From positions 57,745 to 77,744 of IMG/VR virus record IMGVR_UViG_3300021400_000484: a DNA stretch of 20,000 nucleotides. One strand, 5' to 3'. The notes below the pieces were generated by a model that searched no databases, was not told where the DNA came from, and worked only from the letters and a program-made list of their open reading frames with translations. The position numbers and the translations under genes were made by a program. Below, piece after piece: positions 1 to 17,786 of the stretch. Source of the DNA: an uncultured virus (IMG/VR IMGVR_UViG_3300021400_000484) (lineage: Duplodnaviria > Heunggongvirae > Uroviricota > Caudoviricetes). Within the stretch, counting starts at the first letter, position 1. Every line of letters begins with the position of its first letter.

Positions 1-1492
1 CTGAGTAACCAAACTTTACGCAATATCTTGATAAATCCCATTCAACCTCTTTTTGTTTACCAAATTTAGGTTTTGAAAAAGTCATAACAGAAATTAAGTC
101 ATCATTATAAAACAGCCCATAAGCAATAAGATTTCCGCTAGATTTACCTTTTAAATGATATTTATCACAGAATTTGTTCGCATCTTTCAAATCTATTTTT
201 TTTACTGTCGTTTTTCTTCCATATATTATTGTTTTTTGAATAAATAAATCTTTAAGAAATTGTTTAATTTTTTCTTTGTTTTCTATCCAGTCTTTGTCGA
301 ATATTGATATTAATCTTATGTTCTGTCGCTCACAAATTAAGTATTTATTTAAATTATGTTCTTTTGTTTGCGTGAATCGTTCGCCATGCCATAAACTACC
401 ATTATATTCTATTGCAATATTTTTATCTTTACAGAATATGTCTAATTCGAGAAACCGATTAGATTTTTCACTTTTTATGGTTGTACGATTCCTTTTTTCT
501 GCATTTGGATAAAATAACTTTATATAATTATAAATGGCATCTTCACTTGCAGATATACTTTGCTTGCAGTGTGGACATTTACAGGCAGGTTCCCCAGTCG
601 AAATAACGATATGATTTCCAACATACTGGTTGTATATTCCATGTTTTTGACAATAAAAATCTAAATATTCAGTTGATGATATTTCTGATTTTTTAGCTCT
701 TTCCTTATCATATTCATGTGCTAATTCATTTATAAACCAATCTGGATAGCAAGGACGGTTTTTTATTATTGTTTTATTTCTTGATATTTTTTTATTTATT
801 CTTCCACACACAGGACATCCCTGATTAGGTTTCCCAGTGGAAATGTAAATATGTGCATCGACTCTTTGTTTATAATTTCCATGAATGTGACATTTAAATT
901 CTATTTTATCAGACCAATTAAGTTCTTTAGAAATAGCTTTCTGTTTGTCATTATCATTTGCTATATCATTTATAAACCATTGGGGAAATTTCCTTTTTTG
1001 CTTGTTTTTTTCTTTAACAGATTGTTTTTGTTTTATTATACCACATAGAGGACAACCTTGCTTTTTAGATGATGTTTTGAAATCGATATGGTCTGCAACT
1101 ATTTGGTTATAAACGCCATGTTCTTTACAAAAGAATTCTATTCTTTCATTATATTTTAAATCCTTATTTATTGCTTTCTGTTTGTTTTCTTCTGAATAGA
1201 TTTCATCTATAAACCATTTCGGATATTCAGGTCTTTTTGATTTCTTTGTTTCTGAAAATTTAGCTTTTCTTTTAATTTCACTACATAGCTGACAACCTTT
1301 ACGTTTTTCACCTGTGCTAAGTTTTATATGATCTGAAATTCTCTGTGTATAACATCCATGCTCTTTGCAGAAAAAATCTACAACATCCGAACTTTTTAGC
1401 TCATTATTCTTTGCTTTTTGTTTATCTTCTTCGTGAGCTAGTTCATCAATAAACCAGTCAGGAAATGCAGTTCTGTTTTTGATGTTTTTCAT
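1..1492 (-). CDS. Hef-like putative homing endonuclease, 3'-truncated by the window edge: four zinc-finger repeats + Vsr/DUF559-like nuclease + GNAT/Mom-like C-terminal domain
   Basis: Hand-translated frame is open from ATG (1492-1490) to the window start, about 497 codons: MKNIKNRTAFPDWFIDELAHEEDKQKA... It has four ~80-aa repeats P-x-WFI..C-x2-HG-x-Y-x-Q...H...C-x2-C, then SEDAIYNYIK..ELDIFC..IAIEYNGSLWHG..IRLISIFDKDW, then YGRKTTVKKI..ANKFCDKYHLKG..YGLFYNDDLISVMTFSKPKF..EWDLSRYC. SD-like AGGT lies upstream. Confidence 0.85.
   Translation of the reverse strand, partial: MKNIKNRTAFPDWFIDELAHEEDKQKAKNNELKSSDVVDFFCKEHGCYTQRISDHIKLSTGEKRKGCQLCSEIKRKAKFSETKKSKRPEYPKWFIDEIYSEENKQKAINKDLKYNERIEFFCKEHGVYNQIVADHIDFKTSSKKQGCPLCGIIKQKQSVKEKNKQKRKFPQWFINDIANDNDKQKAISKELNWSDKIEFKCHIHGNYKQRVDAHIYISTGKPNQGCPVCGRINKKISRNKTIIKNRPCYPDWFINELAHEYDKERAKKSEISSTEYLDFYCQKHGIYNQYVGNHIVISTGEPACKCPHCKQSISASEDAIYNYIKLFYPNAEKRNRTTIKSEKSNRFLELDIFCKDKNIAIEYNGSLWHGERFTQTKEHNLNKYLICERQNIRLISIFDKDWIENKEKIKQFLKDLFIQKTIIYGRKTTVKKIDLKDANKFCDKYHLKGKSSGNLIAYGLFYNDDLISVMTFSKPKFGKQKEVEWDLSRYCVKFGYS
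560..1470 (-). repeat. Four degenerate tandem coding repeats (period 237-240 nt) encoding C-x2-H...C-x2-C zinc-binding modules
   Basis: The anchor ataaacca (WFI codons on the minus strand) ends at 739, 979, 1216 and 1456, giving spacings of 240, 237 and 240 nt. Confidence 0.9.
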
Positions 1493-1527
1493 GGTGCTTT
1501 ACCTTTAACACATACCTGAATTTTAGA

Positions 1528-1575
1528 GGGCAGGGAAGCAGGTAAATCTTCCTTTTCGGTTGGCCGACCTAGCCC
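1528..1575 (-). ncRNA. Putative structured cis-regulatory leader RNA (three-way junction with an anti-SD loop)
   Basis: GC-rich island in AT-rich DNA. Minus strand reads GGGC-U-AG G UCGG[CCAA]CCGA AAA GGAAG[AUUUACCUG]CUUCC CU-GCCC. The loop is complementary to CAGGUA (1518-1513) and AGGUAAA (1504-1498). Confidence 0.7.
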
Positions 1576-1581
1576 AAATAC

Positions 1582-1610
1582 TTTATAGCATATATTAAAT
1601 AGTTTGTTAA
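1582..1610 (-). promoter_or_regulatory. Sigma70-type promoter for the leader RNA and nuclease gene
   Basis: Minus strand: TTAACA (1610-1605), 17-nt spacer, extended -10 TG-C-TATAAA (1590-1582). The predicted +1 falls at about 1575, the first G of the structured RNA. Confidence 0.65.
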
Positions 1611-1658
1611 TCTTTTTATGTTCGTACTAAGTATGTGTTGTAAATGAAGTCTAAATTT

Positions 1659-1679
1659 TATCTTTCTATCTATAACAAA
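1659..1679 (+). promoter_or_regulatory. Putative phage late promoter motif TATCTTTCTATCTATAACAAA
   Basis: About 88 nt upstream of the tail tube ATG. An identical 21-mer lies on the minus strand at 17766-17786, upstream of the sheath-like gene. Confidence 0.7.
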
Positions 1680-1766
1680 AGAGAGGTTTATCTTATCAAT
1701 CTTTAGATTGGTTAAATCACAAATAGTTTTCATACATTATTCATCTTTATAATAGGAGACAAAGCT

Positions 1767-2390
1767 ATGGCGCAAGGCTGTTACCCAAATAGTAAAGGTA
1801 ATTACGGTGGTTTAGGAGCTGATGTATTTAAGAAGAATGCTCAATACGAAGTACAAAGGACATGCCACTTCGAGGTTTCACTCACATACATCCCAGGCAA
1901 CGACACACAATTTCCGCAGGAATTTCGCGTCGCCGTGTCAGAAGTTTCATTCCCAGAGTGGAGTGTTGGTGACATCACATTATACATGGGCAATCAGAGT
2001 GTAAAAGTTTCTGGCCAGCCAGAACTAGGTGATGCAACGATTACGCTTAATGATTATATTGGTATTGATCTTGAACACAGACTCTATAATTGGTGGAGAC
2101 GTGTTTATGATCCGCAAACAGGTTTGATGGGTCTTGCTATTGACTACAAGACCAATATGAAACTCATCATGTACGCGCCAGATGGTTCGATGGAGCGTTC
2201 GTGGGATTGTTATGGTGTTTGGCCGACGACAGCCCCAGCAGGTTCGTTCTCTTATGAGGGGTCAGACAAGCGTACAATCGACATGACATTAAAAGTTGAC
2301 AATATGTATCCAGATCTTGACGCCCGTGCAGGCATTCGTGAAGAAGCTGCTGCTATTAACGAGAATGGTGGTAGTATTCTTAGACCATAA
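1767..2390 (+). CDS. Tail tube protein (T4 gp19-like)
   Basis: AGGAG SD. The pattern FEVSL..VSFPEWSVGDITL..KVSGQPELGDATITL..LYNWWRRVYDPQTG..YKTNMKLIMYAPDG..W..YGVWPT..FSYE..MTLKVD is typical of gp19-family tubes. Confidence 0.85.
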   Translation: MAQGCYPNSKGNYGGLGADVFKKNAQYEVQRTCHFEVSLTYIPGNDTQFPQEFRVAVSEVSFPEWSVGDITLYMGNQSVKVSGQPELGDATITLNDYIGIDLEHRLYNWWRRVYDPQTGLMGLAIDYKTNMKLIMYAPDGSMERSWDCYGVWPTTAPAGSFSYEGSDKRTIDMTLKVDNMYPDLDARAGIREEAAAINENGGSILRP

Positions 2391-3018
2391 GGTTCGTAAA
2401 CATATCGCCATAATCTTTATACCACGGCTGCGGATGCATTCTTTCAACGAAGAATCCCAGCCGTTTTAGTTTAAGCATTTCTCGTTTTTCAGCATCTTTG
2501 CCTGAATCATCATTGTCGAAAGATAGAATTACATGATTGGTTAAAGTTCGCAAGACTTCCATTTTCAAAACGGATATTGAATCAGTTAGACAAGCGAGTA
2601 CATTTTTATTTATGTTATTTTTTATGTATTCGCAATCTGCTGTTCCTTCGCATATAACAATAGGATCTGTGAACTTTCTTTCGGAAGGCAGGCAGCCGAT
2701 GTTATAAAACATTGATGGTGTGCCGTTAGAAATATTGATAAAACGTTTATTCTTTGTGGCGCGGCATATAATTTCAATTATGCAGCCATCAATGATATTT
2801 GGAATAAACATAACCTGTTTTTCTGTATTTACGAATTCAACTAGGTTTTGTGGTAAATCAGATAGTTTGTTGTTTTCTAACAAACCAGACAGGTTGGTTA
2901 TATCAAATATTTTGAAGTTTTTATTATAGTAGTACCCAATGTAATGATACTTGCTGATTTTGCTTTCGTTTTCTTCGATGCACCTTGCACACGAATAGAT
3001 TTCATTTAGAGTTGTCAT
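2380..3018 (-). CDS. DNA primase catalytic (TOPRIM) domain lacking a zinc-binding domain
   Basis: IVICEGTADC (conserved Glu), ILSFDNDDSGK (DxD) and YKDYGD motifs. Only 212 aa, with no CHC2 motif. Confidence 0.8.
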   Translation of the reverse strand: MTTLNEIYSCARCIEENESKISKYHYIGYYYNKNFKIFDITNLSGLLENNKLSDLPQNLVEFVNTEKQVMFIPNIIDGCIIEIICRATKNKRFINISNGTPSMFYNIGCLPSERKFTDPIVICEGTADCEYIKNNINKNVLACLTDSISVLKMEVLRTLTNHVILSFDNDDSGKDAEKREMLKLKRLGFFVERMHPQPWYKDYGDMFTNLMV

Positions 3019-3073
3019 TTTTTTTTATGTTTGTTTTGAGAAAAATTGCAGTTTTTTCAATTTAGTTTGTTTG

Positions 3074-4135
3074 TTATTTTCCGTTCACGGGTTCTCGGAT
3101 ATCTCTGCTTGGTGAGCTAATAAATATTTCAGGTTCTTCTTCATCGCAGAATCCAGAAGTAAGATTTATGCAATTTCTCAAGAACCCATCTTTTTCGCGT
3201 ATTGTTATTATTGTTGGTGTGACGAATTCTGGATTTATGTTATTTTCTGTTTCTGTATAGTTTGTCATAAATCCATATTCGATCAGAAGATCGTTTAGTA
3301 GTGTAGTGAATATTTTACCTTTTAGGTTTAAAGTTATAGTGCCTTCATAATTATATTCATTTTTCATTTCTGCTGTGTATTGAGCGAGAATGATTCCTTT
3401 TATGAAAGCATAGAAGCAGTTAAACTTTACTTTTTTATCTATAAGATTTGCAACGTTTTTGTCGTCTCTGTCGTTTGCGGCAATAACGTAATAATGTCTT
3501 TTTATGTATTGGTCAATTTCTTCTTTTTCATAAACAGGATAATAGTTACCGTCCTCGTCTTGAACATATTTGGTATTCTTGGCAACAAAGTCAATGGCAT
3601 ATTCAGGTGATCCAGTTGTCTTTTCTCCTTCAGAATCAAGCACATAATTCCAACTTCCATCGTTGGTTATGTAATGCCATTTATCGCTGCCATCTTTTAA
3701 TTTTACATAAATCTGTGAAGAATCTCTAAGTCTTGTGCTTTCGGTATAACCGATTTCATTATCACTATTTTTTACTATGTAAAATAGTTTGAATAGTGGT
3801 GCTGGCGGTCGCTGCGATATTGGGTCATAAGTGAGCCACCAATCATCGAACATCATTCTTAAAGAATTTACAATTATCCTGTAATTATCTTCATTATTGT
3901 TTTCGTTTTCAAAAACATAATTAAGCAAATTTGTTAATTTATCAAATTCAGTTGTTGGTATTAAAGGATTCCATTGCAGATCAATTCTGAACTGCGATGA
4001 TAAATTTCCTTGAGACAGTGCGTAGCCAAAAACGCCCCAAATAGTTGGAATAAGGCGAATCCAATCATCGGTTACGATCTGCCAGTATCTTATATAACCA
4101 GTTGTTTTATCTGTTGAAAAATATTGCCTAATCAT
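3074..4135 (-). CDS. Hypothetical protein, possibly virion structural (353 aa)
   Basis: Long ORF with no recognised motif. A late-promoter-like TATCTAATAT lies about 105 nt upstream (4250-4241). Confidence 0.7.
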   Translation of the reverse strand: MIRQYFSTDKTTGYIRYWQIVTDDWIRLIPTIWGVFGYALSQGNLSSQFRIDLQWNPLIPTTEFDKLTNLLNYVFENENNNEDNYRIIVNSLRMMFDDWWLTYDPISQRPPAPLFKLFYIVKNSDNEIGYTESTRLRDSSQIYVKLKDGSDKWHYITNDGSWNYVLDSEGEKTTGSPEYAIDFVAKNTKYVQDEDGNYYPVYEKEEIDQYIKRHYYVIAANDRDDKNVANLIDKKVKFNCFYAFIKGIILAQYTAEMKNEYNYEGTITLNLKGKIFTTLLNDLLIEYGFMTNYTETENNINPEFVTPTIITIREKDGFLRNCINLTSGFCDEEEPEIFISSPSRDIREPVNGK

Positions 4136-4257: not shown

Positions 4258-5013
4258 GTGCTTATGTTTAATTCAGATGACAATTCCCATTTAACAGATT
4301 ATCAGCTTGAACTCTTTTTAATGCGGAAAGAGATGCAAGATAAGGTCGATGAAACGTTGCTGAAAAACCCAAGGCGCAAGCTACCGAAAAAGAAAGCCAA
4401 ACCGAATTCGGCATGGGTTATGTCTGAAATGAGAACTGATGATGGTGCTGTCACTGATGTTGGTTGGGATCGCATTGAATCGCTTACACGCACAATTTTA
4501 AGAAAACATTTTCCGTCTATATCAATATATAAAGACCTTATTCAGATTGGTGTTATTAAAGCAGCGCAAGTAATAATGGAAGATCCAGAAAATGGTGTTT
4601 ATCGTTCGCTGAGAACTTATATTTATACTTGCATTAGAAATGAAATATCAAATTATCTTTATCATACGCATAAGCGCACACGCGAGACAAGTGATGGTTT
4701 GATGTTTTGCAAGACAAGTTTTAAGCATTCGTCTATTGATAATAAATATATAGACATGGTGTTTAATCGACTTCCAAAGAAATATAATAAATATAAAGAA
4801 TTTATTACATCTGTCATTGCAGTGCTTTCTGATTCAGAAGATGAATATGATGACGAATTGCTGTTTAATGAAGTGAGAATAAGAAGCTCTGAGCAAAACC
4901 TTGAACTTACGGATGAGGAGCTTAGAGAGAGTTTTGTCGATTTTATTCTGCCAGTTGAGAAACAAATAATAACATTGATTGTCAATGCAATACTTGTAGA
5001 TCAGAGATCATAG
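4258..5013 (+). CDS. Sigma70-family sigma-factor-like protein (start uncertain: 4258, 4264 or later)
   Basis: Region-2-like segment YKDLIQIGVIKAAQVIMEDPENGVYRSLRTYIYTCIRNEISNYLY resembles the DLxQEGxxGL...F.TYA..WIR pattern. A region 4 HTH is not clearly recognisable. Confidence 0.6.
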   Translation: MLMFNSDDNSHLTDYQLELFLMRKEMQDKVDETLLKNPRRKLPKKKAKPNSAWVMSEMRTDDGAVTDVGWDRIESLTRTILRKHFPSISIYKDLIQIGVIKAAQVIMEDPENGVYRSLRTYIYTCIRNEISNYLYHTHKRTRETSDGLMFCKTSFKHSSIDNKYIDMVFNRLPKKYNKYKEFITSVIAVLSDSEDEYDDELLFNEVRIRSSEQNLELTDEELRESFVDFILPVEKQIITLIVNAILVDQRS

Positions 5014-6723: not shown

Positions 6724-6764
6724 TTATTATATTTTGTTTTCTTTATTTTTTTTAGGTGGATGTA

Positions 6765-9104
6765 ATGATCGATGCTTCTATACTAAATAATTTTTCAAAA
6801 GAAGAAATTGAAAAAATCATAAAAGCACTTGATATAACACATGAAGAAAACAAGAAACAGACAGAACCAGAGCTTATTAGAGAGATAGAACCGATTGAGC
6901 GCTGGGTTAATAATCCGTATTATGTTGGAAAAGACGGATTAAAATTATATAATTTCTGGAAAGATGCGCTGATTGATATATTCGGAACACATAAAGGTCA
7001 ATATAATGAAGTTATTATAGAAGGCGCACTTGGTACTGGTAAAAGTACTGTCGGCACATTCATTCTTATACGAAAATTATATGAATTGTCTTGTTATAAG
7101 AATGTCGCAGGTTTGTTCGATTTAATGTCTTCTGCAAGCGTTGTTTTTATGTATTTCTCATTAACAAAACAGCAAGCAGAATTAACAGGTTTCAAACAGT
7201 TCAGAGAGACAGTTGATTCTATTCCATATTTTCAAGAAAATTTTTGCAGAAATATGCGACATAGTTCAATACTTGAGTTTCCAGAAAATGTCATATTCAG
7301 ACACGGTGCGAGACTGACAGATCAGATCGGATCAAACCTTATTGCGTCCATCATGGATGAGGCGAACTTTTTTAACCATGATGGAAGTGCGACGGCAGAT
7401 GCTGGTGCGTTGTCTGCCATTCAAGAATTGCACACAGCAGTTCTAAACCGAGGAGCTTCACGTTTTATGGCGAATGGCGTGAACTCATCTATATCAGTTC
7501 TTATTTCTTCTCCGACGTATTCTTCTTCATATACACAACAGCGTATTGAGGCTTCTATTGGTAATCCTCATGCAAAAGTTTTTAGATGCAGGTTGTGGGA
7601 TTGCAAACCAGATAAGTTTTCTAAAGAACATTTTTATGTTTTTTTAGGCAATGAAAAAGTAGATCCATTTATAATTAATGATGTCGAAGATTTAAATAAT
7701 GCATTAGAAGCAGAAATGTGTCAGCCATATCAAGGCTATGATCTTAAAGAAGGCATAGCTAAGATGCCACCTAGAATGCGTGAAAAGATAGACAGCATTC
7801 CTGTTGAGTTTAGAGATAGGTTTGATCAAAACTTATTGCAATCAATTATGGATGTTGCTGGTAAATCTGTTGCACCATCAGGTCGATTGTTTTCATCTAA
7901 AAAGATATGGAATGCCTGTATATCTGATAAAATCCCGCAGCTATTTACAAAGAATGAATTATCAATTACGACAGAGGATGATTCAGAAAGAAATACACTT
8001 GAATATTATTTAAAAGATAAATTTATTGATCCGCATTTGTCGCATTATATCCATATCGACCAATCTTATGCTCACGACTCTACGGGATTTGCGATTTGTC
8101 ATCGTGGTGAAAATGTCGTCCGCAATGGATCTTTAATGCCGACAATAATTATTGATTGTGCGCTGAGAATAAACCCACCACCACCACCTAAGAAAATATC
8201 TATTGCAAGGGTGCGATCTTTTATTTTCTATTGCATAAAGACATTAAAAATCAATATTGCAAAAGTTACATACGACTCTTTTTCAAGTGCAGAAAGTATT
8301 CAGACTTTAAAAGAGAATGGTGTTAATGCAGAAATGCAATCTGTCGATAGAACGGATGACGCATACCTAGGATTTATTGATTTGCTTTACGACAGCAGGA
8401 TAACTTTCAACAAGATGGATGCTGATTTGATGGCGACAGAAATATTTGAATTGGTGCATTATCGTGAACGTCATAAAGTTGACCACCAGCCTAATGGGTG
8501 TTTTTCTGGCCAGACAAAAATAAAAGTATGCGGCGAAGGTAATATAGCAATAGCAGAATTGGTTGGCAGAACTGACATACAGACTTATGGCATAGATGAT
8601 ACTGGCGAAATTATTGTCGTTCCAATCAGAAAAGTTTGGAAAGTAAAAGAAGAAGATCAAGTAACGAAAGTCAGGATATTAAATCTTGATGATGGTCAAA
8701 TAAGCGAAATTATTTGCACACGCGAACACATGTTTCTGTTAAAGAATGGAAGTTATGTGGACGCTAAGAGTTTAAGAACTGGGATGCCGCTTGCAGGATT
8801 TGGAAAACATGCAGTAGCAAGCATAATGAATTATACTACATTATCGCCGATACCTGTATATGACATGGAATCGCCTGTTACGCACAATTATTGTTTGGGC
8901 AATGGCATTATAGTTCACAACTCAAAAGACGTTATGGATGCCGTCGTTGGATGTGTTTATTCTGCTATTAAAGATAAGGATTTTGAAGTTATAACGCCAC
9001 AACAATTTTCCGCTGGCTTGAAAGGAAATTATGATACATACGATGATGATGATATTTTCTCTCAAGATGAATTATTGTCTGGTTATGAATATAGAGATTT
9101 GTGA
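6765..9104 (+). CDS. terL: Terminase large subunit with an intein
   Basis: Walker A EGALGTGKST, Walker B IMDEANF, motif III LISSP. RNase H-like nuclease motifs IHIDQS..DSTG, TYDSF and VDH..(intein)..SKDVMDA. ATG 6765 follows an AGGTG SD (the track starts at GTG 6756). Confidence 0.92.
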   Translation: MIDASILNNFSKEEIEKIIKALDITHEENKKQTEPELIREIEPIERWVNNPYYVGKDGLKLYNFWKDALIDIFGTHKGQYNEVIIEGALGTGKSTVGTFILIRKLYELSCYKNVAGLFDLMSSASVVFMYFSLTKQQAELTGFKQFRETVDSIPYFQENFCRNMRHSSILEFPENVIFRHGARLTDQIGSNLIASIMDEANFFNHDGSATADAGALSAIQELHTAVLNRGASRFMANGVNSSISVLISSPTYSSSYTQQRIEASIGNPHAKVFRCRLWDCKPDKFSKEHFYVFLGNEKVDPFIINDVEDLNNALEAEMCQPYQGYDLKEGIAKMPPRMREKIDSIPVEFRDRFDQNLLQSIMDVAGKSVAPSGRLFSSKKIWNACISDKIPQLFTKNELSITTEDDSERNTLEYYLKDKFIDPHLSHYIHIDQSYAHDSTGFAICHRGENVVRNGSLMPTIIIDCALRINPPPPPKKISIARVRSFIFYCIKTLKINIAKVTYDSFSSAESIQTLKENGVNAEMQSVDRTDDAYLGFIDLLYDSRITFNKMDADLMATEIFELVHYRERHKVDHQPNGCFSGQTKIKVCGEGNIAIAELVGRTDIQTYGIDDTGEIIVVPIRKVWKVKEEDQVTKVRILNLDDGQISEIICTREHMFLLKNGSYVDAKSLRTGMPLAGFGKHAVASIMNYTTLSPIPVYDMESPVTHNYCLGNGIIVHNSKDVMDAVVGCVYSAIKDKDFEVITPQQFSAGLKGNYDTYDDDDIFSQDELLSGYEYRDL
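8499..8921 (+). mobile_element. Mini-intein (141 aa) in the terminase nuclease domain
   Basis: Starts CFSGQTKI, block B ICTREHMF, block F PVYDMES, ends HNYCLGNGIIVHN followed by Ser+1. Too short to hold an endonuclease. Confidence 0.93.
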
Positions 9105-11574: not shown

Positions 11575-12045
11575 ATGCAATCAGACAAATTACTGGAAAC
11601 AAACACGCAATTTCAACGGCATATATTAAATTCAACTTTGGATTTTAGAATTGCATGTGAGCAATATGGAATAAACTTGCGTGCAGCTAAGTCAGGTGTG
11701 TGCTTTTGCCCATTCCATTATAATCGCAATACGCCGTCGGCAAAAGTTTACGAAGATAGCCTTTATTGCTTTTCAGAAAACCGTTCATTTCGTGTTAGCA
11801 GTTTGTTTGATTATGGATTGGTGTCAGATACAATCCAAAACGCATTTAATAATATATGGTGTCTTTTGAGCAATGATGCAAAAGATGAATTGATAAAATC
11901 ATTTAACGACAATGAAAATAATTCTGCTCAATGGATGATACGAAAAGAATTAGCACCTTTGAATGATTATAGACGTGGTATAATTGATTATAGTACATAT
12001 TGTAAACGTCTTTTGTCATGTCTGTCAGAAATTTCGAGGCAGTGA
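11575..12045 (+). CDS. Stand-alone primase-type (CHC2-like) zinc-finger protein
   Basis: ACEQYGINL...CFCPFHYNRNTPSAKVYEDSLYCFSE matches the DnaG zinc-binding pattern CPFH.e.tPS..v....yhCF. GGAG SD at 11565-11568 favours ATG 11575. Confidence 0.75.
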   Translation: MQSDKLLETNTQFQRHILNSTLDFRIACEQYGINLRAAKSGVCFCPFHYNRNTPSAKVYEDSLYCFSENRSFRVSSLFDYGLVSDTIQNAFNNIWCLLSNDAKDELIKSFNDNENNSAQWMIRKELAPLNDYRRGIIDYSTYCKRLLSCLSEISRQ

Positions 12046-14627
12046 TGCGGACAACGTTTGTTTCATCTTTAAATCTAAAAAATGCAGACGCACAAAGCAC
12101 TGACTGTATTTTGTTTAGTTGTGATGATAGCAATAAACTTTTTTTGCTATTTAATAATTATCAAAACAAACATAGGGTATTAGAATATTATTTTGCTGGT
12201 GATGATACGCAGATAGTTTATTTTGGTGGTCAAACAGAATATAGAATTTTATTAAATTTTGGTGCAATACCACAAAAGCTGTCGTTGACGCCAATTGATC
12301 TAAATGCGAGATATTGGAACGCAGATACAACGAGAACGAATCAAAATTATCTTGACGCACTTGAACAGTTAAAAATAATAGATTCAGAACAACGCACTGC
12401 AATAGAATTGTTTCTTGTTTATACATATAGACATTCACAGTCTGGTTTTGTTGAAATAGAAGAAAACATTGAATCAGATTTATATATAAACGCAAGAAGA
12501 ATTATGTATGGATTGAAACTTATTTATCAAAACAGTTCAAACAGAACTTTTGCAGATTCTATTGATGATGTATTATCACAATCACTTATGAAAATAGAAG
12601 ATAATAAAATTAAGTTGGATGAGCAATATATCAGATATTTGCGATCTGAAATAAACACAAAGACAAAGGAAGTGCTTAACGACATTTATTCTATTGCAGG
12701 AAAACGTTTCAATATAAATTCACCGAGAGAGTTAAATTTCATATTGAGTGAGCAAGGTTTATCGACAAACTCACTGACAAAAAATGCACTTGAGACAAAT
12801 TATGAGCAAACTGGGCTTATGATTTTTAAGCTCATAGACAAATACAGAAAACTTGTAATGTATGGCGAGCAATATATAAAGCCGCTTGAAAATTCTTTAA
12901 AAAATGGCTTTGGCCGTTTCAAATATAAAACAACATCAGTGCCGTGTCTTACGCAGGGTCATTTCTGTTTTGTAAAAGACCGTGGAATTATCGACATTGC
13001 GTGTGTAAAAAAAGATGATTTCATTTGGACTGACTTTGGTTTTAAACGTGTTTTATGGAATGAGGCTCATAAAACAAATGATATAACAAGGGTTGAATTG
13101 TCTAATGGTATGACGATAACTGGCGCGAGCCATCACCCAATTTTAGTTAATTCTTCTGCTAATATCAGAAGTAAATACCATTCGATATCGCAGCAATGGT
13201 GCGCGCTTGAAAATTTATTTATTGGTGAAAGCGTTATTTGCAATTATGATTATAAATCTTTGAAACAAGAAAAAGAACAATATCATCTTGCAGGCGAAAT
13301 TATTTGCAAGATAATGAATTCATATTCTGAATATAACAATAAGAAATATGGTGATACTCATTATCTTCGATTTGATAACATCACATTTTCTCACATGATG
13401 ACATTTGAATCATTCAAATCATATTGTGAGTTTGTCGGTCTTAAATTTTGGTGCTTCACTTATGGAAAAAATAATGAGCATTATGACATTGTTTTCTATG
13501 ATCAGAATAGCTTAAAAGATTTTTGTTCTGATTTTGCTGCGTATTTGAATAATAAAAATAAGAATTATATAGAAAATTTTTTGAAGAATTTAGCAAGCAG
13601 TGATTTCAATTATGAGCATTGTCATCCAAAAGATAATGGATATTTCAATCTGCAATATGAGGAAACGACAGTAATTTCAGTTACAAAATTAAATACTGAA
13701 ATGACGGTTTATGATATTGAGGTTGAGGATGTTCATGAATATAATGCAAATGGAATAAGGAATCACAATACAGGTCGTCTTGCATCATCGCGAACATCTG
13801 ACAGCAATAAATATTTTACAAAGTTAAATATTCAAAGCGTTCCAAAGAATTATATAGACAATATCAATGTGCGTAAATGCTTTTTGCCGAATGATAATTG
13901 TGAATGGTGCTGCATAGATTTCAAAGCACAAGAAATGCGGCTTGCGTCTTATTTGTATGGATTAAAAAAAATAAATAGCATACCGCTGAATGAAGATATT
14001 TATACAGAATTTGGAAAAGAATTAAATTTGTTTAATGGTGCTGAATTGTCAGAACATACGAAGCGAGAAGCATCTAAGGTTATTTGTCTTGGTATGATTT
14101 ATGGATTGTCTAATTATGGTATTGTTAGACAGTTAAAATCACTTGGAATTGATGTCGATGAAAATCATGATTTCAGACAATCATTTTATGATATTTGTCC
14201 AGAATTAAAAGATGGTCAAAGCCGAACGTTAAAATATGCACATGCTATAAATGGTATTTATACGATAAGTGGTAGGTTTAGAAAGATTGAATTTACGGAT
14301 TATGACAAAGAAAATTTGTTGACAAGAAATAATAGGATTGCACTAAATACTGTAATTCAGGGTGCTTGCGGTGATATTATGCGTGTCGTTCTTAATAAGG
14401 TTGAAAAAGAAATAAAACCACGATATAAAGAATATGGTTTCGCTTTATTAAGCACCATTCATGATGAGATAAACATAAGCATTCCTGCTGGCAAATCGTT
14501 GCAAAAGATTATTATAAATGACATTCTATCTATAATAACAAAGCCGATAGACCAACTTCAAGATTTGCAGTTTGGATGCTCTGTTTCCATTGGCAAATCT
14601 TGGGGAGCGTTGTCGCCGATTGTTTAG
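12045..14627 (+). CDS. polA: Family A DNA polymerase with an intein
   Basis: RFNINSPRELNFIL, YRKL, TGRLASS, LNIQSVP, motif A IDFKAQEMRL, motif B REASKVICLGMIYG, NTVIQG and motif C TIHDEI. ATG 12045 overlaps the upstream TGA (TGATG) and follows GAGG (the track start is 12018). Confidence 0.92.
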   Translation: MRTTFVSSLNLKNADAQSTDCILFSCDDSNKLFLLFNNYQNKHRVLEYYFAGDDTQIVYFGGQTEYRILLNFGAIPQKLSLTPIDLNARYWNADTTRTNQNYLDALEQLKIIDSEQRTAIELFLVYTYRHSQSGFVEIEENIESDLYINARRIMYGLKLIYQNSSNRTFADSIDDVLSQSLMKIEDNKIKLDEQYIRYLRSEINTKTKEVLNDIYSIAGKRFNINSPRELNFILSEQGLSTNSLTKNALETNYEQTGLMIFKLIDKYRKLVMYGEQYIKPLENSLKNGFGRFKYKTTSVPCLTQGHFCFVKDRGIIDIACVKKDDFIWTDFGFKRVLWNEAHKTNDITRVELSNGMTITGASHHPILVNSSANIRSKYHSISQQWCALENLFIGESVICNYDYKSLKQEKEQYHLAGEIICKIMNSYSEYNNKKYGDTHYLRFDNITFSHMMTFESFKSYCEFVGLKFWCFTYGKNNEHYDIVFYDQNSLKDFCSDFAAYLNNKNKNYIENFLKNLASSDFNYEHCHPKDNGYFNLQYEETTVISVTKLNTEMTVYDIEVEDVHEYNANGIRNHNTGRLASSRTSDSNKYFTKLNIQSVPKNYIDNINVRKCFLPNDNCEWCCIDFKAQEMRLASYLYGLKKINSIPLNEDIYTEFGKELNLFNGAELSEHTKREASKVICLGMIYGLSNYGIVRQLKSLGIDVDENHDFRQSFYDICPELKDGQSRTLKYAHAINGIYTISGRFRKIEFTDYDKENLLTRNNRIALNTVIQGACGDIMRVVLNKVEKEIKPRYKEYGFALLSTIHDEINISIPAGKSLQKIIINDILSIITKPIDQLQDLQFGCSVSIGKSWGALSPIV
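12945..13769 (+). mobile_element. Intein (275 aa) in PolA with an apparently degenerate endonuclease insert
   Basis: Starts CLTQGHF, block B ITGASHHPIL, block F VYDIEVEDVHEY, ends ANGIRNHN followed by Thr+1 of TGRLASS. Confidence 0.92.
14524..14535 (+). promoter_or_regulatory. Putative late promoter motif TTCTATCTATAA inside the 3' end of polA
   Basis: About 104 nt upstream of ATG 14639. Matches the core of the 1659 and 17786 copies. Confidence 0.6.
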
Positions 14628-17765: not shown

Positions 17766-17786
17766 TTTGTTATAGATAGAAAGATA
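17766..17786 (-). promoter_or_regulatory. Putative late promoter motif TATCTTTCTATCTATAACAAA
   Basis: Exact 21-nt match to 1659-1679, about 63 nt upstream of ATG 17703. Confidence 0.7.

Follow-up and report, generated by a model that had tools for sequence, protein, structure and literature searches.

An int-alpA-type RNA as a probable cis-acting leader of a homing endonuclease gene in an uncultured Caudoviricetes phage

Freestanding homing endonucleases must be made in small, well-timed amounts, and to our knowledge their control by RNA is understood in only a few T4-type cases. Complementarity in the C4 antisense RNA of phages P1 and P7 involves two sets of sites. This RNA belongs to the immI operon (Citron and Schuster, 1990, cited in PMC8198154), while hairpins that sequester the ribosome-binding site (RBS) have been described for the T4-type homing endonuclease genes I-TevI, mobE and segB (PMC3014915). 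A third RNA, int-alpA, is catalogued by Rfam as RF02996 and typed as 'Gene; sRNA' (small RNA). It was reportedly a candidate of Weinberg and colleagues in 2017, in a paper (PMC5737381) whose main text does not contain that name. Our literature search returned the name int-alpA in a genome-annotation table and as gene-order wording, with no function given, and none of the matches listed for leader or kissing-loop control of homing endonucleases dealt with this family, going by titles and the beginnings of abstracts. The family is catalogued, and a function for it was not found in print. Here we analyse a stretch of 20,000 nucleotides (nt), hereafter the window, taken from the end of a 77,744-bp virus record that has inverted terminal repeats (IMGVR_UViG_3300021400_000484; 35.1% G+C). 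The carrier is labelled a gut phage and, on the minus strand between its tail tube gene and a nuclease gene, a leader stands before the gene of a selfish DNA-cutting enzyme. An earlier note on this sequence had likened the leader to C4 and to the T4-type hairpins, and these comparisons rest on the same two sources.

We consider it reasonably probable that this RNA is a cis-acting leader in which a decoy and the Shine-Dalgarno (SD) region compete for one loop, setting the rate at which the nuclease is translated. The reading is built on the observed membership in an RNA family, the covariation of the stems and of the loop with both of its sites, a conserved hairpin around the SD, and the placement of the leader before mobile nuclease genes. 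All the elements listed in the earlier note (promoter-like boxes, fold, loop, two sites and ATG) are present on the minus strand in the positions that it gave, and are as follows:

1610-1605, minus strand: -35-like hexamer TTAACA of the putative promoter, 17 nt upstream of the -10-like hexamer
1590-1582, minus strand: extended -10-like sequence TGCTATAAA (TATAAA at 1587-1582, spacer ending in TGC), which ends 6 nt before G1575
1579-1515, minus strand: match to the whole RF02996 model (1-71), 30.1 bits, against a gathering score of 35.8
1575-1528, minus strand: three-way junction with closing stem GGGC (1575-1572) / GCCC (1531-1528) and junction bases UA, GAAAA (1557-1553) and CU
1569-1558, minus strand: hairpin 1, GGU/ACC with loop CGGCCA, in the Rfam register of the cmscan alignment
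1552-1534, minus strand: hairpin 2, GGAAG-AUUUACCUG-CUUCC, with the 9-nt address loop at 1547-1539
1527-1519, minus strand: A/U-rich linker UCUAAAAUU, aligned to the U-rich tail of the Rfam consensus
1518-1513, minus strand: site 1 (the 'decoy'), CAGGUA, complementary to UACCUG of the loop (duplex -7.9 kcal/mol)
1511-1494, minus strand: SD hairpin GUGUU-AAAGGUAA-AGCAC, with site 2 in its loop, ending 1 nt before the AUG
1504-1498, minus strand: site 2, AGGUAAA, the SD region, 5 nt before the ATG and complementary to UUUACCU of the loop (duplex -7.5 kcal/mol)
2-1492, minus strand: homing endonuclease gene, ATG at 1492-1490, continuing past the left end of the window

Transcription would probably start at about G1575 from TTAACA-N17-TGCTATAAA, so that the RNA would begin with the three-way junction, whose conserved core (UA, GAAAA and CU) would hold out the 9-nt 'address' loop on hairpin 2. 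This loop could form a pseudoknot with site 1, a single-stranded decoy that lies 10 nt beyond the junction, or alternatively pair with site 2 in the 8-nt loop of the SD hairpin; as site 2 lies in a hairpin loop, this second pairing would be a loop-loop kiss. Both pairings use overlapping loop bases, which would make them mutually exclusive, and being nearly equal in strength they would compete. If pairing at site 2 represses translation and the two states interconvert, the share of transcripts with an occupied SD would set a low translation of a potentially harmful nuclease.

The loop covaries with both the decoy and the SD region (the earlier note had suggested such a test for loop and SD) across 22 loop types and across four copies in the genome. 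Further copies were taken from sequence-pattern scans of viral contigs, metagenome contigs and species genomes, with non-motif matches removed, and together with the four genome copies they gave 22 distinct hairpin-2 loop types, the hairpin length being set by hand for L110, L135 and c1. The loop is unlike in each of these types, and its complement recurs downstream, usually twice. The best complementary run of a loop in its own leader averages 6.18 nt, compared to 3.96 nt in the downstream regions of other leaders, the second non-overlapping site averages 4.59 nt vs. 2.55 nt, and the energy of the loop-site duplex -10.1 vs. -6.9 kcal/mol, with none of 20,000 derangements reaching the own value on any of the three measures. 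Two of the 22 types have no second site, and the best run is only 4 nt in two of 22. For the window by itself, loop complements as long as the two observed (7 and 6 nt) arose in 113 of 20,000 dinucleotide shuffles of the downstream 38 nt.

The search for further copies in the same genome that the earlier note had proposed was productive, as the RF02996 model finds four in all, including that of the window; c2 and c1 reach the gathering score of 35.8 and c3 just misses it.

c1: genome 22593-22664, 35.8 bits; loop AUUUAUCCA, site 1 UGGAUA, site 2 GGAUAAA; precedes a 432-amino-acid product with no informative Pfam match, by eye like the window nuclease
c2 (L148): genome 24064-24133, 40.7 bits; loop AAUCGUCAG, site 1 CUGACG, site 2 UGACGG; precedes a 53-amino-acid open reading frame (ORF)
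c3 (L150): genome 35217-35285, 35.6 bits; loop AAAGCCUAA, site 1 UUAGGCU, site 2 AGGCUA; precedes a TnpB-like gene (OrfB_IS605 at 9e-29)
c4 (window): loop AUUUACCUG, site 1 CAGGUA, site 2 AGGUAAA

On their predicted pairings, these four copies in one genome are a natural compensatory series, in which the strongest partner of each loop is its own leader (-7.8 to -9.6 kcal/mol, vs. -1.9 to -6.1 kcal/mol for the others). The strengths of the site 1 and SD duplexes were compared for the four genome copies only, a fixed split at -20 nt being unreliable for short leaders. Covariation of this kind indicates that both pairings are selected, while their alternation, a shift of the balance between them and the sign of the effect lie outside covariation.

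The hairpin that presents the SD was absent from the earlier account of the RNA and, as a predicted structure, extends the element beyond the RF02996 model. Each of the 21 representatives whose start is assigned (L127, with its start codon unassigned, was excluded from this count) has a hairpin of 4 bp or more in its final 26 nt, and in 18 of them the loop of this hairpin is complementary to the hairpin-2 apex over at least 4 nt. There is wide sequence variation among the stems, and their mean energy of -3.36 kcal/mol compares with -0.98 kcal/mol in shuffles, none of 300 shuffle sets being as low. These data bear on an alternative that we consider unlikely, namely a constitutive structure, in which the junction, locked by the site 1 pseudoknot, protects the 5' end of the mRNA or fixes the geometry of initiation, while the SD is not competed for. 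Such a role fits an RNA that seems to begin at +1 and a site 1 that would be transcribed first. Moreover, site 1 is where the RF02996 model stops, and the consensus loop CCuU of the model is complementary to the model's own tail AgGG, so that the site 1 pseudoknot is probably part of the core of the family. However, the second site follows the loop beyond the SD core (e.g., GGAUAAA vs. AGGUAAA in two paralogous leaders), its run exceeds that found in other leaders (see above), and it sits in a conserved hairpin loop, all of which argue against such a structure.

The match to int-alpA came from a cmscan against Rfam, the first check put forward in the earlier note, with an E-value (E) of 1.1e-4 in a 221-nt search and 9.2e-6 in a search of the whole genome. 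A scan at gathering thresholds does not list the window copy because its score is below the cut-off, a deficit due mostly to a closing stem of 4 bp, compared to about 8 bp in the model, where the four outer pairs are non-standard here and only GGGC/GCCC pair. Every junction base matches the consensus (CUAG, CGAAAAG and CCUG are aligned), hairpin 2 has the 5 bp and the loop of about 9 nt holding CC, and the tail UCUAAAAUUCAGG is aligned at the AgGG end of the model, with CAGG of site 1 opposite AgGG. Its neighbourhood is another matter: the family takes its name from adjacent integrase and alpA genes, and a Pfam scan of 21 window ORFs gave no integrase or AlpA match. Higher scores were obtained elsewhere: in L009, an unrelated viral contig, the 22-nt core of the fold recurs exactly, after a TATAAT and before a different, HNH/AP2-like nuclease ORF (44.1 bits), and L152 and L153 score 46.5 and 45.9 bits. 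By alignment, the window copy is int-alpA-type, a divergent copy and not a member at the curated threshold, and its predicted fold is a real, conserved RNA element. The earlier note was right about the reality of the element, which is not a new RNA class but of a type already in Rfam.

The genes that follow the leader were examined in 27 cases with Pfam. Nuclease domains (HNH, HNH_3, T5orf172/MUG113 and OrfB_IS605, some below Pfam cut-offs) were found in 12 products, only accompanying DNA-binding domains (AP2; CapR, DUF723, DUF4379) in three, HTH_36 in two, and no informative match in 10. As the copies were collected by RNA sequence and not by gene, this enrichment in nucleases is not built in. 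The copies are placed after promoter-like sequence and before mobile nuclease genes, either HNH, T5orf172, TnpB or the 615-amino-acid homing endonuclease of this phage, and every copy examined has a same-strand start codon 40-70 nt further downstream, the two sites lying between. Five copies (c1-c3, L156, and L157) were found by the covariance model and missed by the sequence pattern, and the layout just described recurs in five of five; L156 and L157, coming from model searches of other phage records, have downstream an ORF with a GIY-YIG-like N-terminus and an HNH-like ORF, respectively (both by eye). As to the genes behind the copies of the present genome, the stretch 35217-36505 comprises the c3 leader and the TnpB-like gene (OrfB_IS605, Cas12f1-like TNB, HTH_OrfB_IS605). 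The 53-amino-acid ORF behind c2 (leader plus ORF, 24064-24321) has no family match and is followed by a 907-amino-acid ORF with a weak VapE-like match; it may be the remnant of a lost nuclease gene or encode a small protein.

Pattern scans required careful cleaning. The relaxed pattern gave 101 stretches in viral contigs, mostly chance matches in G+C-rich coding DNA, and only those with the full motif were kept. A 19-mer, GGTCGGCCAACCGAAAAGG, searched in species-representative genomes gave five stretches, of which one was a true copy (L114), three were polynucleotide phosphorylase-like coding sequence and one other coding sequence. It sits in frame in conserved bacterial coding sequence (L115, L116, L118, L128, and L141), a source of false matches, and its translated motif resembles that of polynucleotide phosphorylase. 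We dropped L112, L113, L115, L116, L118, L128, L141, and L143 as non-motif, L126 and L124 as truncated, and L015 as identical to the window. Among 131 cellular genomes in the class of the metagenome-assembled genome G001, an RF02996 match was found only in G001 itself, and in GenBank phages no close DNA relative matched window 1400-1800.

Another alternative, to which we give a low probability, is a small RNA acting in trans: the junction would be terminated or cut after the closing stem and diffuse as an antisense RNA to its own or other mRNAs, like P1 C4. This is how Rfam types the family, and both the consensus and some copies (c1, L028) resemble a terminator in having a U run behind a G+C-rich closing stem; besides, P1 C4 shares an operon with its target (PMC8198154). 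In the window, however, the closing stem has 4 bp, the tail is UCUAAAAUU instead of the U run after a G+C-rich stem that would mark an sRNA gene with an intrinsic terminator, and no terminator-like site was called on the minus strand between 1490 and 1530. The start codon with its two sites follows every copy examined, as described, and the orthogonality of the four loops disfavours action on paralogues. The earlier note's suggestion that the RNA might act in trans on paralogous nuclease genes has accordingly lost ground, the nuclease being single-copy and each of the four leaders fitting its own mRNA best. We did consider as trans targets the two exact 9-nt complements of the window loop found elsewhere in the genome; both lie inside a 2767-amino-acid ORF, not at a start, and were judged to be due to chance.

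Stem covariation was assessed in an alignment of 30 sequences with the Rfam-type structure. Paired cells amount to 85.8%, compared to 65.0% in shuffles (0 of 500 as high) and 38-47% with slid partners, and changes on both sides are seen in 14 of 16 pairs, including 8/8 of the closing stem and 4/5 of hairpin 2. G-U pairs occur on the leader strand, where they would be C-A on the other one. In the window copy, the 48-nt fold (1575-1528) has 58% G+C and the RNAfold minimum-energy structure is the three-way junction that had been claimed. Of the details given for it, the closing stem GGGC/GCCC and hairpin 2 were borne out, while no support was found for the AG/CU extension or for UCGG/CCGA as the register of hairpin 1: these positions are invariant across the alignment, which neither confirms nor rejects them, and c2 (GCCC/GGGU) and c3 (GGUU/AGCC) fit the Rfam register of hairpin 1 followed by unpaired GAAAA, and not UCGG/CCGA. 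The evidence beyond chance for the fold and the pairings comes from the relatives, and the window sequence alone would be a weak case.

The contrast between freely varying stems and a nearly invariant UA, GAAAA, CU and hairpin 1 across unrelated phages would suit a sensor, whose core binds a small molecule, a protein, RNA polymerase or the ribosome and so chooses the site taken by the loop. This idea could be added to the competing leader, but we regard it as improbable, given that no ligand, conserved neighbour gene or riboswitch-family match was found and that the invariance of the core comes partly from how the sequence set was collected. That we are dealing with a chance fold or a DNA-level feature without RNA function, such as a recombination patch moving promoter cassettes, is very improbable: the single-sequence z-score is unremarkable (-0.71) and the same 19-27 nt of DNA precede unrelated nuclease genes in unrelated phages, which could help cassette shuffling, but against this stand the compensatory changes of two helices, the G-U pairs (C-A if read from the opposite strand), the covariation of loops with sites, and a fixed orientation to the downstream gene.

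Several observations weigh against a competing cis-acting leader. The 51-nt fold has an energy of -15.0 kcal/mol that 41 of 200 shuffles equal (z -0.71, as above), and the z-score of a 101-nt stretch is +0.44. Hairpin 1 and the junction, invariant in the alignment because the set was collected by a pattern covering both, add no covariation. The window copy is under the Rfam cut-off (30.1 vs. 35.8) with four of eight closing-stem pairs kept. The loops are CCU-rich and their complements SD-like, so part of the site 2 match would arise anyway, and in 3 of 21 representatives the loop of the SD hairpin has fewer than 4 complementary bases. The RNA-library contigs leave leader and nuclease uncovered, and a related phage (L007, see below) has a nuclease at the same site without the leader, which is therefore dispensable for such genes. 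Beyond the competing leader itself, and more tentatively, one might imagine a translation governor, modular and re-addressable, that accompanies the genes of selfish nucleases from several unrelated families and whose junction core answers a cellular or phage signal by directing an evolvable loop to the decoy or, by a kiss, to the RBS; orthogonal copies would work side by side, each as a cis switch and not as an sRNA, and the family would amount to a naturally occurring set of orthogonal regulators of translation. This wider view we hold as possible but doubtful.

Regarding the 5' end of the RNA, a start 7 nt downstream of the -10-like hexamer falls on G1575, the first base of the fold, and the 5' edge of the fold is a plausible +1 of the nuclease mRNA. 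Sigma-70-like matches are not enriched in the window (92 vs. 90.2 in shuffles), so that we take this promoter as an inferred one. A TATAAT lies 4-7 nt ahead of the closing stem in several relatives (L046, L050, L068, and L130; L052 by eye), and a 5-of-6 match to it in others, a spacing that agrees with an RNA beginning at the closing stem. Over window 900-2600, the contigs from four RNA libraries are confined to 1771-2332, in the tail tube gene, and to 30 nt at 1662-1691. In a G+C-rich group (L114, L122, L123, L126, and L144) a shared upstream block (…CTGACCGAGCACCACCGCCGCGC) replaces the -10-like box; it may represent a different kind of promoter or a conserved 5' extension of greater length. 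An 11-mer, TTCTATCTATA, rather than a TATAAT-like box, precedes copies c2 and c3. It occurs six times in the 77.7-kb genome:

window 1664-1674, plus strand: TTCTATCTATA
window 14524-14534, plus strand: TTCTATCTATA
window 17771-17781, minus strand: TTCTATCTATA
genome 24051, plus strand: TTCTATCTATA, preceding leader c2
genome 35203, plus strand: TTCTATCTATA, preceding leader c3
genome 37921, plus strand: TTCTATCTATA

At five of the six sites an ORF, that of the tail tube gene included, starts on the same strand within about 110 nt downstream, the sixth being the one at 24051 before c2. We take the 11-mer as a probable promoter specific to the phage, which the sigma-like protein encoded at 4258-5013 might recognize, and as it would serve c2 and c3, the four leaders may be read at different times.

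The nuclease has 615 amino acids in the full genome, where it is single-copy, with four Zn-finger-like repeats and matches to phrog_559 ('HNH endonuclease', 1.1e-55) and phrog_3339 ('homing endonuclease', 6.2e-44). Its surroundings in the window are these:

1493-1661, minus strand: 5' part of the nuclease cassette (promoter and leader), with the cassette edge at 1661/1662
1767-2390, plus strand: tail tube gene (Pfam Phage_T4_gp19), on the strand opposite to the nuclease

The relative L007 is 97.4% identical rightwards from window 1662 and departs at 1661/1662, and an RNA-library contig from a relative likewise diverges at 1662. To the left of that edge, at the same sheath-tube site, L007 carries (1691-3811, minus strand) a different Zn-finger nuclease of 706 amino acids with more repeats, which has its own promoter, TTGACA-N17-TGACATAAT, and a 12-nt leader with no RF02996 match at E up to 1. 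Since nuclease, promoter and leader are swapped together at the edge, the three form one replaceable cassette in which this leader is not obligatory, and the comparison looks like an allelic replacement of a homing-endonuclease cassette. Upstream of its nuclease, L007 also has a long plus-strand ORF, possibly a sheath gene, and read-through from such a sheath gene would run antisense to nuclease mRNA and leader. Elsewhere in the window, intein-splicing/Hint matches were found in a 782-amino-acid ORF (6756-9104, plus strand) and in a family A DNA polymerase ORF (12018-14627, plus strand); at 31.9 and 33.0 bits they are just under the Pfam cut-off of 35.8, and inteins in replication genes are likely. 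A tRNA or tmRNA relic was also considered and discarded, ARAGORN having found none in the window.

With these results, a catalogued RNA family without a known function gains a concrete, testable role as the apparent leader of mobile nuclease genes. The nucleases behind it are of several kinds (HNH, T5orf172/GIY-YIG-like, TnpB, and Zn-finger nuclease), and its loop co-evolves with two sites in the same mRNA, one of which is the RBS. If the mechanism is true, the family would be re-annotated as a cis-regulator instead of an sRNA, and could supply small orthogonal parts for the control of translation.

Compared to the systems described at the beginning, the window leader is closest to int-alpA, with which it shares the three-way junction with UA, GAAAA and CU, the 5-bp hairpin 2 with its C-rich 9-nt loop, and the U/A-rich tail ending in an AGG-like word complementary to the loop. 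It differs in its context, a nuclease cassette of a lytic-type phage instead of integrase/alpA, and in running on to a second site in the SD hairpin. The likeness to the P1/P7 C4 RNA lies in a small folded RNA at the head of the operon that it controls, with short loop-to-mRNA pairings near the RBS (PMC8198154). Nevertheless, the window leader has one loop and two sites, both downstream, the RNA is most likely attached in cis, and C4 serves immunity and not a nuclease; the C4 model is not among the seven Rfam matches at E up to 10 for window 1440-1660. With the T4-type hairpins it has in common an RNA structure that would restrict the loading of ribosomes where translation of a phage homing endonuclease gene begins, with no sequence or model similarity claimed. 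In those genes (PMC3014915), a local helix contains the SD or AUG and is avoided in a shorter late transcript, whereas the window leader presents its SD in a hairpin loop, and the competitor would be the distant loop of a three-way junction, plus a decoy. By analogy, then, the leader would work somewhat like P1 C4 and the T4-type RBS hairpins, as a member of neither.

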